Positions 14,092 to 50,939 of a stretch of DNA of 64,000 nt are shown here, in pieces. The DNA comes from Octopus vulgaris. Lineage: Eukaryota. The stretch is taken from positions 148,986,001-149,050,000 of the forward strand of contig OX597817.1 of NCBI GenBank assembly GCA_951406725.2, written 5' to 3'. Numbering within the stretch: position 1 is the stretch's first letter; each line of letters starts with the position of its first letter. The notes beneath the pieces are model-generated. The model did no database searches. It was not told the origin of the DNA and saw only the letters and a program-made list of their open reading frames with translations. A program made the translations under genes and the position numbers.

Positions 14092-14298
14092 CTAAAGAAG
14101 AGTTGTAAGATACTGCACGAGTGGAAATATATATGACAGAAGGTTTGAAAATGCAATTTTAAAAATGTTTATTCACTTGACCGGTTTCACTTTTTTAAAA
14201 AAAAGTTTGTGTAAAGTAACTTTTTCTAAAAAAAAGTGAAACCGGTCAAGTGAATAAACATTTTTAAAATTGCATTTTCAAACATTCTTTCATATATA
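14092..14298. mobile_element. Fold-back element in (TA)n, ~80-bp arms, PLE pLTR-like
   Basis: 14128-14207 is the near-exact reverse complement of 14218-14298; the arms contain GAAACCGGTC followed by AATAAA. Confidence 0.8.
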
Positions 14299-14626
14299 TA
14301 TATATACATATACATACAAGCATACCAACATATACATATAAATGCATGTGTGTATGTCAGTGTCTTTGTCTGTGTGCGTGAGTGTGTGTATGTGTGTGTG
14401 TATATATATATATATATATATATATATTTATTTATATATATTCATGTATGCGTATATGTATGTATGTATGTATGTATGTATGTATACAAGGACAGAGACA
14501 GATTGAGAGGCTGGGATGATAATGCAAATAAACAGATAAAACATCTCGGGCTAGATATACAAAATATATATAACAAAGATTAGAAAGACAGAGAAAATTA
14601 AGGGGGAAAGGTATGGTATTACAGGT

Positions 14627-14756
14627 CTGACAGCTGTTTCTGGAGACTATAAGGTACTTCAAAATGTGAGCAGACGTACCTGGCATAAAGTCAAGGACTT
14701 GCAACCAATAGTGGAAGCATATAAACATTAGGTAGATCCGGCCTCCATCTTCATAG
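14627..14756 (-). ncRNA. Hammerhead-like motif with long loop II and one core mismatch
   Basis: Minus: ct-ATGAAGA-TGGAG...CTCCA-GAA-ACAGCTGT-C-ag; C3 replaced by A; stem I only 2 bp. Confidence 0.5.
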
Positions 14757-15261
14757 TGGAGAGATAAGCATGTAACATTTTGAATCATAATGCAGGGATA
14801 CATTGTATTACAGGCGTATGTAACTGGATACACAGACAAATACAAGCAAACGCTTATATATACACATATATATACATACATATATATATATATATATATA
14901 TATATATACATATATATACACACACACACACACACACACACACACACACACACACACACATATATATATATATATATATATATATATGTTGTGTCTGGGA
15001 AAAGTCATCCTCTTTTAGTGACTTATAATTTAACACACACACCGGTAAAATTTCCACTTATTTCTTTTTTTATTTTTCTAAAAATGTTGTTGCGACTCTA
15101 CCAGACACAACAGAATGTACTTCAACACACGCACTCACATAAAGAATCTTGCAAGCCAAATACAAAACCCGATATGTGTGTATGTGTGTGTGTGTGTGTG
15201 TGCGCGTGTGTGCGTATGTGTTTGTGTGTGTGTATATATTTGTATATACATATATTCTTTT

Positions 15262-15448
15262 ATGTTTTTTATCTGTTTTAATCGTTTGACTGAGGCCACG
15301 CTGGAGCTCTGGCTGGGGGGGATTTAATCGAACAAATCGACGCCAGAACTAGTACATATTCTATCAGTCTGTTTTGCCAGATCCCTATGTTACGGGGAGG
15401 TAAACACACCAACACCTGTTGTCAGGCGGTGACGGGAAACAAACACAG
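15262..15448 (-). mobile_element. SINE family A, 3' fragment
   Basis: Aligns by eye to 7802-8010. Confidence 0.75.
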
Positions 15449-16473
15449 AATTAGGGTGTCTTTTCTAGCTAATCATTTTATCCAAGAAGTACGTAATACA
15501 TTTGTGGTTATTCCTTTATATCTTGGCAAAGCAACTTAGTAAAAGAATTTACAATTATAATCGTTTTATTTATGGCTTATTAATTGTTTGTTCAATCTAT
15601 TGGTTGTTCTGGTAATAGTTACATTATACACTCATGCTATGAAGGGGGGAGGAAAAAATGGGGACCACTGAGAGATGATCGCAGTGCAGAAAGATGATAG
15701 AGTGCAAGGAGTTTATATGTTTTATTGTGTGAATATTGCAATGGCCCTAAGAATTACATTGGGTATTTAATGACGTAAATAAGACATTTTCCATCGCTTA
15801 ATTTAATGGTGCTGATTAACGAGGTGAGTGAGTACAAGGAAATTATTTTGTTTAATGTATAATGTGCTCAGATCAAAGGAAAAGGAGTCTAGTTTTAAGA
15901 TAGGCAATGGCGTTTATTTATCGTAGTGAGCGGTTGTGTATCTATTGGCGTTAAATAACAATTCAGTCGCTGATTGAAGTTTGCGTGCTTATTGGTGAAT
16001 GTTCATGTGAGCATTAATAAAAATTATTTATATTGATATTTTGTAAAATATGTGTTATGTTTATTTTATTTCCAAGTTTATAAAGTCCATTGGGTGTTCC
16101 GCTATCATCGGTTTTGTCGCGTAAATGTTGGTTACTGCATAACGTTTATTAAATTGTATCGTATTTTCTGTATATTCATATGCATACATACATACATACA
16201 TACAGACAGACAGACAGATATCGATAGATAGATAGATAGATAGATAGATAGATAGATAGATAGATAGATAGATAGATAGATAGATAGATAGATAGATAGA
16301 TAGTTAGATAGATAGATAGATAGATAGATAGATAGATAGATAGATAGATAGATAGATAGATAGATAGATAGATAGATAGATAACTGTGTGTTCTTAGGTT
16401 GTCATACATTCATGTCTATATAAAGATATATATATATATATATATATATATATATATATATATATATATATAA

Positions 16474-16680
16474 GGCATAGGAGTGGCTGTGTGGTAAGTA
16501 GCTCGCTTAACAACTACATCGTTCCCGGTTCAGTCCCACTGCGAGGCAACTTCGGCAAGAGTTGTCCACTATAGCCGCGGACCGAACAAAGTTTTGTGAG
16601 TGAATAAGTCCTGGGCTTGATTTGATCGATGAAAAGCGGTGCTCCAGCATGGCTGCAGTCAAATGACTGAATAAAAGAAT
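16474..16680 (+). mobile_element. SINE family A with internal deletion
   Basis: Head GGCATAGGAGTGGCTGTGTGGTAAG joined to tail GGTGCTCCAGCATGGCTGCAGTCAAATGACTGAA. Confidence 0.85.
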
Positions 16681-17007
16681 ATCGTAATTGTGCTTGTATG
16701 AATTTGTGTGTCTATGTTTTTCTTTGACTTTCATCCAAGTTCTTTAAAGATTTCAAACCAGTCACTAATAAAATAACAAGCATGTTTTAGTTAAAACCGT
16801 TCGCGAGGTTTCCGAGGGTCCGTTTGTGTGTGCCTTTAAATGTAGGTCCACCGACTTGCACTTATGTATTCTATGGACATGTCTTTTTAGTAACTTAGGT
16901 GTTTTTTTTTTTGTGTAGTGTCTCTCGGGGTGAGTATGCCTTTGTGCACTTGTGTTTTCCAGTGTGTGTGTCTGTGTGGGCATCTTTAATTTTACATATG
17001 TATTTCT

Positions 17008-48134: not shown

Positions 48135-48260
48135 TAAACCAATTTCAACGGATTTCGCCCAAATTTGACGTCGATGTTACTTAGTTTGGTTTGAAATAAA
48201 GAACTTGATTAGCTTAATAATCCTAACTTAATCCCAGGCAAAGACAGGTTATACTGCTAG
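48135..48260 (+). mobile_element. Degraded Helitron 3' end
   Basis: CCCAGGCAAAGACAGGTTATACTGCTAG|T resembles the termini at 8474 and 29878. Confidence 0.45.
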
Positions 48261-48594
48261 TTGTTAATAAAGGCCGCAAAATAAGGAGAGAGGAGCACAA
48301 TTCGAAGTAAATTAAGATGCCGTCGGATCATTCATTTACATTCAGTTAAGATAAACATCAATTGAAGTAAGAATAACACTCTATATTTTTGTCAGTTAAT
48401 GAATATCATTCTTTGATTGATTCATTTGTAGGAAAATAGAAGAATCTCTAAGACTGACTTTAAACATGATGTTCTTGAAATTCTATTTAACGGCAAGCTC
48501 CTTCGGGTACGTCTGTTTGAAATAAGATCCAAATCTTCTTCTGGCCACACCGTATTGTTTTAACAAAGGATAAATGCATTAGATCATACTTTCT

Positions 48595-49020
48595 AGTCCG
48601 TAAGGAGCATAAGGTCGAGACCAAGACACTATCTTAGGCTATCTCCGTCATTTGAGACCATGCATGCCCTTTACTTTTCGCTTCATCCTCCACGCAACCT
48701 TCCCAGATTTTCTTAGGTCGTCCAAGGCTCTTTCTTTCAGGGTGCTAGCCTAACACTTGTCTTGCAATGCTGCTCGGTCTCCTTAGAATGTGACCGATCC
48801 AACCCCATTTCCTTTTCAGAATTTCCTGATTGATGGAAGTTTGGTTCATTCTATCCCATAGACTTCTGTTTGAAATTTTGTCCAACCACCAGATCTTGAG
48901 GAAGCAGCGCAAACATTTTGTAAGGAAGGTCTGTAGCTTATTATTTGTGGCTTTGGTGACCCTCCAAATTTCTGACCCGTGAACAAGAACGTCCTTGACG
49001 TTGGAACTTGAGATGCGGAG
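48595..49020 (-). mobile_element. RTE-clade LINE 3' fragment (pseudogene)
   Basis: GSEIWRVTKATNNKLQTFLTKCLRCFLKIWWLDKISN..RKWGWIGHILR..GRPKKIW. Confidence 0.82.
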
Positions 49021-50151
49021 TTTTTATTTTTTTTGTGGTAAATAGCTTGGACAAAGAGTCTGAATAAACCAAGGTGGTCAGGACTGGAATACCATAGATC
49101 TTAGGTCTATTCAGCTAGTATTTAAACACCAAGAACAACAACTACAGCAGCAAAATTACCAGTGTATTTGACTGAATGATTTTGACACCCATTTACAAAG
49201 GTTATGCATAATTTGTAGCATTAAAAGTAAACGGATGTTATAAAATTACATTTGTTTTTTCTAAGTTACTGATTTTTCAGATATCAGTCTGTAGCCATAC
49301 TGCAGCAGTGCCTTCAGGAATTTTACTCAATGTTAACAATCTTAGAACAGTAATTTATTTTATTGGCCACTTATCATCGAATCGTAAATTAAACTTCAAC
49401 CCCTGACCCACAGGCCTGCTATTTCCTTTCCTTTCTATTAAATCGGCTCTACTTTTCGCTTCTGGCTGGTTTCGCACAACCTCAACTCAGACCTCTTCGA
49501 CTCAATCGTATTTTCTTTAACTTGTCATTTGTACTGCACCTGCCCGCCTCTCCATAAACCCGGCAACAATCAGCTTCTAATCCTCAATCTCCAAAACATC
49601 TCCCTTCTGGAAATTCTTTCCTTAACCATCGTTTTTAGCCTGTAGTGGTCACCTTGGAGTGGCTTGTGATGTACATTAAATACATCGATATCAGCTGCTT
49701 CTAAGAGCCTGCGAAGACCGTAAGTACAACACCTAAACATAGAATAATAAATTAATCGATTTTACAATTACATTTCGAATTTTGAATGAAACAATTTCGA
49801 TTAAATCTATCTGTAACTAATATTTTTTGAGAAATGGTTAAACCTCAAAAGCAAGTCTCTTTATTAAGTCTCTACAAAAAATATCCGACTGTTTTGTCGG
49901 TAGACTATTATTAAGAAAGAGTTACAAATATGGAGCCAGAAATACAAAAAGGGAGTGGCATACAAGACAAAGTGAGGAGGGGAAGAGAAGAAAAGAGGGA
50001 GAGAGGTAGGGGCGGAGGGGAAGGATGTCGAAGGAGACGAGGAACAGAACAGTAGCCAAATCTCCCTCCTGCTTTGAAAAGAAAACATGTAAAAGAATAA
50101 TGTATATGTGTGCCACATATATATGTGTGTATACATATACATATATATATA

Positions 50152-50444
50152 TCACCGTCACCGACCAGGCTATCAGATATTGCTACACATCGCTGGTCAC
50201 AATGCGCTTTGCATTGTTTTAGCGTTCAAATGACACCAACCCGCTGGCTAAGCGGGCAGGCCAACAGAAGAAAGAGTGAGAGAAAGTTGGGACGAAAGAG
50301 TACAGCAGGGATCGCCACCAGCAGGGGTCGTGGAGCTTTAGGTGTTTCCGCTCAACAAACACTCACAATGCCCGGTTTGGGAATCGAAACTGCGATCCTA
50401 CGACCGCGAGTCCGCTGCCCTAACCACCGGGCCATTGCGCCTCC
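50152..50444 (-). mobile_element. SINE family C, tail type 3
   Basis: Shared head; 50152-50265 unrelated to the other two tails. Confidence 0.85.
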
Positions 50445-50630
50445 ATACATACATACATATATATATATATATATATATATATATATATATATATACATAT
50501 ATATATATATATATATATATATATATATATACATATACATACACATGTGTGTGTGTATATATATATATATACATATACATATACATACACATGTGTCTGT
50601 GTATATATATATATATATATATATATATAT

Positions 50631-50939
50631 AAAATTAATTAAGGGTAGAAATTGATATTTATCAATTAAGACCAGTGGTCTAGCATATTAAAAGAATCCG
50701 AAGATTAAAATATTTATATATACCAATTAAGGACTGAACACGAAAAGTGGACAGTCAACATGCTAGATATAGACGTCAAATCGTCATTCTCCACAAAAGA
50801 TTATGTTCTCAGATCAAACTCAACACAAAATGGTTTTGTGTTGAGTTTGATCTGAGAACATAATCTTTTGTGGAGAATGACGATTTGACGTCTATATCTA
50901 GCATGTTGACTGTCCACTTTTCGTGTTCAGTCCTAATTG
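50631..50939. mobile_element. Fold-back element in (TA)n with perfect 101-bp arms, 3-nt loop and one-sided extension
   Basis: 50730-50830 is the exact reverse complement of 50834-50934. Confidence 0.9.

Follow-up and report, generated by a model that had tools for sequence, protein, structure and literature searches.

Fold-back elements beside (TA)n in the Octopus vulgaris genome as probable Penelope-type insertions of coding elements and of retrozyme-like hammerhead repeats

Introduction

The stretch of DNA analysed here, which we call the window, comprises 64,000 nucleotides of Octopus vulgaris (GenBank assembly GCA_951406725.2, contig OX597817.1, positions 148,986,001 to 149,050,000 of the forward strand), and between its positions 14,092 and 50,939 it contains eight fold-back elements beside (TA)n runs, named here 14092, 23253, 23563, 27947, 35172, 35733, 47546 and 50631. 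A first-pass annotation took them for derivatives of the pseudo-long terminal repeats (pLTRs) of Penelope-like elements (PLEs), several with hammerhead ribozyme motifs, and offered a choice between PLE integration products that lack an open reading frame (ORF) and a non-autonomous, retrozyme-like class of ribozyme hairpins. PLE insertions are often described as an inverted, 5'-truncated copy with a 30-40-bp tail at one end (PMC8557442, PMC3846280), and in Schistosoma closely spaced hammerhead pairs on opposite strands, 100-700 bp apart, have been reported (PMC4209133). For retrozymes, mobilisation by PLEs and synthesis of tandem cDNA from circles have already been proposed (PMC7229834; bioRxiv 10.64898/2026.07.22.740005), and the evidence so far on the enzyme that copies animal retrozymes consists of co-occurrence, phylogeny and one in-vitro system. 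No report of retrozymes in cephalopods, or of retrozyme insertions that are inverted and tailed, was found in the main texts searched, among which few subscription journals were covered. A published octopus repeat annotation lists recently active Penelope families and, in the part of its text available, does not mention the word 'ribozyme' (PMC13282606).

In the present work the window elements are traced into their families in the genome (2.8 Gb searched). Every one of them belongs to a dispersed family, with 173-2643 first-look candidates, which are not copy numbers. Loci are given L numbers where they have to be told apart.

Results

With simple repeats masked, 12 inverted-repeat matches no more than 1.5 kb apart were present in the window and none in each of 10 local shuffles. 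Eight of these are the elements listed above, so that every fold-back claimed earlier was recovered; two represent one inverted pair of short interspersed nuclear elements (SINEs) and two are unlisted palindromes (37215 and 40480). Arm alignment is near-perfect at 14092, 23253, 47546 and 50631 (arm-to-arm identity ~98% at 50631), the arms are diverged at 23563 (77% identity) and 35733 (80%), and those of 27947 and 35172 align over just ~50 bp; substitutions together with 8- and 17-nt indels separate the two arms of 47546. A common design of an unpaired extension, arm, loop and inverted arm between (TA)n runs had been proposed, and the extension, the flanking (TA)n and the stop of the shorter arm at an internal TA run are indeed seen. 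The design needs correction in three places: the apparent loop of 27947 and 35172 is the unpaired surplus of the longer arm, the extension of 35172 starts near 35113 and has no adjoining (TA)n on its left side, and the 35733 element begins at 35644 and carries an unrelated long interspersed nuclear element (LINE) fragment inside its loop. Outward-facing hammerhead cores reported at 14092, 35172, 35733 and 47546 are present. The hammerhead descriptor was passed in the window solely by the right arm of 47546, and direct reading gave half or degenerate cores, with the 3' side outward, in 14092, 35172, 35733 and the left arm of 47546.

Three of the elements are truncated 3' ends of coding, endonuclease-bearing PLEs. 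Element 14092 (14092-14299) consists of head-to-head truncated 3' ends of a putative Neptune-type family, with a tail of ~35 bp (14092-14126), an arm (14127-14215), an inverted arm (14218-14299) and half a hammerhead in either arm. No ORF lies within 1.5 kb in 30 loci of this family, and its assignment to PLEs is based on the GIY-YIG ORF of the sole extended relative, L229, which has a GIY-YIG and a reverse transcriptase (RT)-end match with an inverted arm directly after. Element 47546 (47546-48057) has the same head-to-head, Neptune-type arrangement, with a 30-bp tail (47546-47575), arms at 47576-47825 and 47832-48057, and a U3-A8 minimal hammerhead, by descriptor or direct reading, in either arm; nine of 30 relatives extend into RT/GIY-YIG coding sequence, L230 and L231 carry both RT and GIY-YIG, and L230 matches Pfam RVT_1 (9e-7) and GIY-YIG (7e-5). 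The endonucleases of these two families, or of their close relatives, have a CX4CxxC-type linker, described as a mark of Neptune and Nematis elements (PMC8557442), and the U3-A8 hammerhead variant of the octopus families has likewise been described (PMC4209133). Element 35172 (35113-35542) joins, head to head, truncated 3' ends of a putative Hydra-type family: a partial tail (35113-35171), an inverted arm of 50 bp and a long arm that reaches 35497, with a degenerate hammerhead on the minus strand. Four of 24 distinct loci of this family run into a contiguous endonuclease with a CxCX5C linker and with CxxC and CxH around a conserved E/N, motifs that define the (TA)n-targeting Hydra clade (PMC8557442). 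This endonuclease gave no relevant Pfam match, and an RT-end-like sequence for the type was found, by eye, only in the related element L264. The search with the Hydra-type protein gave 13,999 candidates, and the type is therefore abundant in this genome. Its ORFs L263-L267 and L221-L223 have long asparagine-rich stretches ahead of the endonuclease, similar to the N-rich inserts of rotifer Penelope elements (PMC3846280).

All three families have the inverted, 5'-truncated copy with a one-sided tail, in two-armed spans of about 200 to 1800 bp, and a hammerhead in the terminal repeat, which the descriptor recovered in 22/30, 17/30 and 14/25 loci compared with 0-1 in shuffles. Element 35733 (35644-36961), which is old, AT-rich and built to the same plan, has a tail at 35644-35726 and a degenerate hammerhead core; its relatives have more than 1.5 kb of AT-rich sequence in common, at ~75-80% identity and with a degenerate core, and no ORF was found in 25 loci and six extended stretches.

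The other four elements are fragments of ORF-less, retrozyme-like units of 410-505 bp, each with a predicted, canonical type I hammerhead. Element 50631 (50631-50942) is a fold-back of a young 505-bp unit, with its tail at 50631-50711 (unit 1-81) and arms covering unit 1-202 and 206-82. Element 23253 (23245-23513) derives from a 470-bp unit and has a tail at 23435-23513 and arms that join near 23339. Element 27947 (27948-28220) combines a tailed short arm (unit 15-121) with a longer inverted arm (unit 78-248) of a ~485-bp unit, and element 23563 (23565-23772) is an old fold-back of a ~410-bp unit, with a partly deleted tail (23565-23633) and arms at 23634-23772. The first-pass annotation noticed no hammerhead in these four copies because all of them, 23253 and 50631 included, stop before the ribozyme. 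Elsewhere in the genome the 505-bp unit forms short tandem arrays of units that are 99-100% identical and have no long ORF, the 470-bp unit also occurs in arrays, and for the older ~485- and ~410-bp units a wrap-around was seen in only a few loci (e.g. L161 and L143). The choice offered earlier is thus a false one: three elements come from the 3' ends of coding PLEs and four from tandem hammerhead repeats.

In each tandem family the full unit (GC 0.28-0.37) has a type I hammerhead motif, which lies on the strand that has its 3' end towards the tail. The hammerhead descriptor, proposed earlier as a check with U3-A8 cores allowed, matched in 28/30 loci of the 505 family and 17/30 of the 470 family against 0-1 in shuffles. 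The old families gave 6/25 (27947) and 6/25 (23563), some of them from neighbouring elements and otherwise as single examples. Stem sequences vary among the families while their pairing is preserved, and circular folds of the four tandem units gave z scores of -8.7, -3.0, -7.2 and -1.5. For the 505 family an exact 22-nt pattern of the ribozyme site was found 396 times and its control not at all. The loci L284-L312 form a 464-bp sister family of the 470-bp unit, distinct in its hammerhead stems and alike in its two end sites (2-6 and 82-85).

Transcription was approached through sequencing runs that are presumed to be RNA, none of the runs that contain the unit being recorded as such. In one, a single 535-nt contig spans the 505-bp unit and closes on itself, as a tandem transcript or DNA also would. 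Four runs all show the unit junction, and the differences are mostly A>G/T>C (27 of 38 places in X9; L090:1198-1702), as counted without a DNA control, and might reflect editing. Within the DNA itself, neither singleton nor shared variants had a clear A>G excess of the kind expected of editing fossils.

The ends of the insertions were measured in the 505 family on all 39 loci under the first 100 of the 396 ribozyme-site places, a sample that was chosen by an internal motif rather than by ends and that misses hairpins shorter than about 270 nt. Forward-arm ends in the family alignments are biased by tail-containing queries, and the end statistics accordingly come from inverted arms and this 39-locus sample only; 11 inverted ends of the 470 family, which represent a small hairpin within the tail, were left out. 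Among 68 outer (RNA 3') ends, 31 fall at unit 1-3, 31 at 82-83 and six elsewhere. None falls at the predicted ribozyme cleavage site (unit 252), and the ribozyme is therefore not what sets the insertion ends. Flank enrichment for (TA)n, also proposed as a check, was clear: a TA run of at least 8 lies within 35 bp of 63 of the 68 ends, where the background is 12% for positions drawn at random in the window and 8% for distal flanks. The two ends are used together, since 24 of 29 two-armed loci have mixed end types, none has two of the same type, and five have one off-site end. The inverted arms of the PLE families, which are unselected, stop at position 31 of the reference in 7/8 cases (47546) and at 36 in 9/11 (14092). 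Ends adjoin TA in 34/38 cases for 47546, 27/41 for 14092, 25/29 for 35172, 34/47 for 27947, 16/29 for 35733 and 12/32 for 23563, and every family that was read has a TA-rich run at its inner end site; in the tandem units the outer site is TA-rich as well.

The turn points between the arms vary. They span unit 44-505 in the 505 family, where the two arms are usually truncated at unrelated positions, and in the 27947 family the junction is different in all 19 loci examined. Almost every locus has a junction of its own, and the hairpin therefore forms at insertion and is not an element class; the proposed comparison of junction positions rules out transposition of the hairpin as a whole.

Variants within a locus point to a common template. 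At four common sites both arms have the same allele in 22/23, 24/24, 12/14 and 9/9 cases, against 48-65% expected for independent templates. Where a site is covered by at least two units of the same locus, 50 variants occur in every unit, 11 in part of the units and 116 in a single unit; eight of the 50 are absent from every other sampled locus. In a separate, partly overlapping sample, arm-to-arm divergence is 0.38% in the 505 family and 2.6% in the 470 family, compared with 0.74% and 4.2% between loci. Because variants are both shared across units and private to the locus, a one-monomer bottleneck must have occurred at some stage, and rolling-circle reverse transcription of a circular template would account for it simply.

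Three observations weakly suggest that an enzyme of the Hydra clade is the likeliest partner of the tandem units. The tails are long (~100 bp compared with 30-35 bp in the Neptune-type families), the hammerhead core is C3-G8 rather than U3-A8, and in the chimera L278:2789-3560 a Hydra-type ORF with 300 bp of 3' untranslated region is followed, in the same orientation, by a complete turn of a 470-type unit. We rejected L278 as the parental PLE family, its junction being unique among 40 scored candidates. A short tail motif is common to the tandem families (36/39, 29/30, 26/29, 10/25 and 8/25 loci, from which the pattern was derived).

Several further features lie in the window. A 5'-truncated PLE, apparently of Neptune type, occupies 21135-23220 on the plus strand, with a 422-codon open frame that holds an RT end and a GIY-YIG domain (both Pfam matches below cut-off) and a U3-A8 hammerhead near 23040-23080. 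It lies upstream of elements 23253 and 23563, so that all three insertions, the truncated PLE and the two fold-backs of retrozyme-like units, are neighbours within a single TA tract (21135-23815), which suggests that the same target was used repeatedly. A small palindrome at 37215-37330 adjoins a 50-bp stretch like the hammerhead region of the 47546 family and is probably another decayed PLE end. A further old palindrome at 40480-40672 has an arm identity of 72% and belongs to a dispersed family (163 candidates); a tandem copy of it on C27 was set aside as a local minisatellite with no match to the hammerhead descriptor. The broken RT fragment inside element 35733 (36270-36735, plus strand), unrelated to that element, is presumably of a CR1/L2-like LINE. 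Broken LINE RT frames, which we take to be Tx1/L1-like, and inverted SINE pairs lie at 25039-26860 (minus strand), 17008-17632 and 26935-29423. In an Rfam scan of the window the best 150 of 318 matches were all spurious miRNA hairpins.

Discussion

We consider it very likely that the fold-backs are head-to-head pairs of 5'-truncated copies at (TA)n, made by a PLE-like RT/GIY-YIG enzyme that primes from both target strands at two fixed sites on one RNA. The (TA)n target would be cut on both strands, and each 3' end would anneal to a TA-rich site in the RNA; priming at the site further 3' would give the tailed arm and priming at the nearer site the shorter one. Both cDNAs would stop at random and then be joined head to head, with very short products appearing as the window hairpins. 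For the tandem families the template would likely be a ribozyme-processed monomer, probably circular and copied repeatedly into arrays of up to about seven units. The purified PLE protein of Anolis is reported to cut and extend both target strands and to start reverse transcription at two internal positions, one at either limit of the tail; it is predicted to be a dimer, and the hammerhead was dispensable in vitro (PMC11167929). A more specific version, in which a dimeric Penelope-type enzyme anneals both (TA)n strands to one circular RNA in the manner of telomerase and rolls in both cDNAs, so that every insertion is a two-armed, single-template array and the conserved tail motif is a recognition signal, is put forward tentatively, as something that may well not hold in full.

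A number of points weigh against the preferred account. Reverse transcription by the Anolis protein starts at a place not homologous to the cut DNA, unlike the annealing step inferred here (PMC11167929). Against 50 Hydra-type and 61 Neptune-type 3' regions (111 in all, from few families) the tandem units gave no BLAST match except the chimera L278, so that the earlier derivation of all the arms from pLTRs stands for the families of 14092, 47546 and 35172, which run into PLE ORFs, and finds no support for the four tandem-repeat elements in this sample. The tail motif is nearly absent from sampled PLE loci (2/30, 0/30, 0/25 and 2/50), and the tails of five families are 77-100 bp long compared with the published 30-40 bp. 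Rfam returned no hammerhead match at gathering score in seven family loci, the Hydra- and Neptune-type labels are motif-based, and the window hairpins are known from assembled sequence alone. The 11 variants common to only part of a locus's units speak against a single template, and variant sharing may also come about if linear transcripts arise from arrays that are homogeneous, if each cell has only one active source locus, or if one arm converts the other.

The closest competitor retains PLE-type integration and makes the second arm by fold-back on the first cDNA, through self-priming or a template switch, with arrays derived from linear multimeric transcripts and no circle. It accounts for variants common to both arms, self-priming has been proposed for palindromic PLE junctions (PMC3846280), and the junctions of L315, L317, L321, L336 and L342 are exact or overlapping palindromes. 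It is nevertheless unlikely as the general route, though not negligibly so, in that most loci truncate their arms at unrelated positions, either arm can be the longer and by several units, the second arm always terminates at the other fixed site, and variants private to a locus yet present in all its units imply passage through a single monomer at some stage. Movement of the tandem units by a LINE, or DNA-level rolling-circle or satellite amplification, with the likeness to PLEs due to convergence, would agree with the lack of a sequence link to the sampled PLEs and with the many LINE fragments in the window and loci. We regard this as improbable, since neighbouring coding PLE families have the same two fixed ends, mixed pairing, (TA)n targeting and overlap of inverted arms, the arrays are short and dispersed, and no poly(A) or simple-repeat 3' tail was seen besides the target TA.

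The two remaining explanations have very little probability. Inverted arms with TA flanks do resemble Tc1/mariner miniature inverted-repeat transposable elements (MITEs), and the top matches of the 27947 query are similar in total length, as a MITE or a dedicated ribozyme-bearing class moving as a palindrome would have it. The first-pass annotation had named ordinary MITEs as an alternative, yet the fixed length, symmetric terminal inverted repeats and constant interior of such elements were not found; all 19 junctions of the 27947 family differ, the ends are asymmetric, many copies are one-armed, and relatives continue as PLE ORFs or as tandem arrays, by which this explanation is already refuted for these families. 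That the palindromes are assembly or chimeric-read artefacts is just as hard to credit: the ~98% identity of the 50631 arms and the reliance on the assembly would favour it, whereas the arms of 47546 differ by substitutions and indels, old arms are 77-80% alike, and ends recur at family-specific positions across dozens of loci.

The earlier claims of a PLE link, of (TA)n targeting and of a tail hold up, and the octopus insertions share with described endonuclease-bearing PLEs the inverted 5'-truncated copy, one-sided tail, (TA)n bias, 3'-repeat hammerhead and two RT start sites (PMC8557442, PMC3846280, PMC11167929). They differ from those descriptions in the 77-100-bp tails of the Hydra-type and tandem families, in having two TA-rich start sites, and in that the rule extends to ORF-less tandem units. 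These units are likened to retrozymes from their sequence, with a predicted ribozyme and no pLTR homology found among the 111 sampled 3' regions apart from L278. As in the metazoan non-LTR (long terminal repeat) retrozymes, the units are tandem, non-coding and low in GC, contain a single type I hammerhead apiece and are predicted to pair with themselves (PMC7229834; bioRxiv 10.64898/2026.07.22.740005); their size, 410-505 bp, compares with 170-400 nt (PMC7229834) and 51-972 bp (bioRxiv 10.64898/2026.07.22.740005). The octopus units show head-to-head arrays, fixed internal ends and a preference for (TA)n targets, none of which is described in the main texts of those two reports. Like the non-autonomous MRC1 elements of Chlamys, the octopus units would be ORF-less PLE passengers with head-to-tail multicopy insertions; MRC1-type elements, however, resemble autonomous 3' ends and belong to a clade mostly without hammerheads, whereas the octopus units have hammerheads and no partner match (PMC8557442).

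What is new is that insertion of retrozyme-like repeats from two sites on a single template now has quantitative genomic evidence, and the hairpin shape is ordinary PLE biology. Such hairpins are not MITEs, and their structure bears on the way in which PLEs come to insert as inverted copies with a tail on one side. The scars left by the retrozyme-like units support the long-proposed copying route by a PLE enzyme, and the young 505 family, with its 396 exact ribozyme-site copies, two exact starts and single-template arrays, leads to a direct in-vitro prediction. Cephalopods are known for heavy RNA editing. Long double-stranded RNA is expected from the hairpin geometry if these elements are transcribed, and thousands of such hairpins could be a source of it in the octopus.

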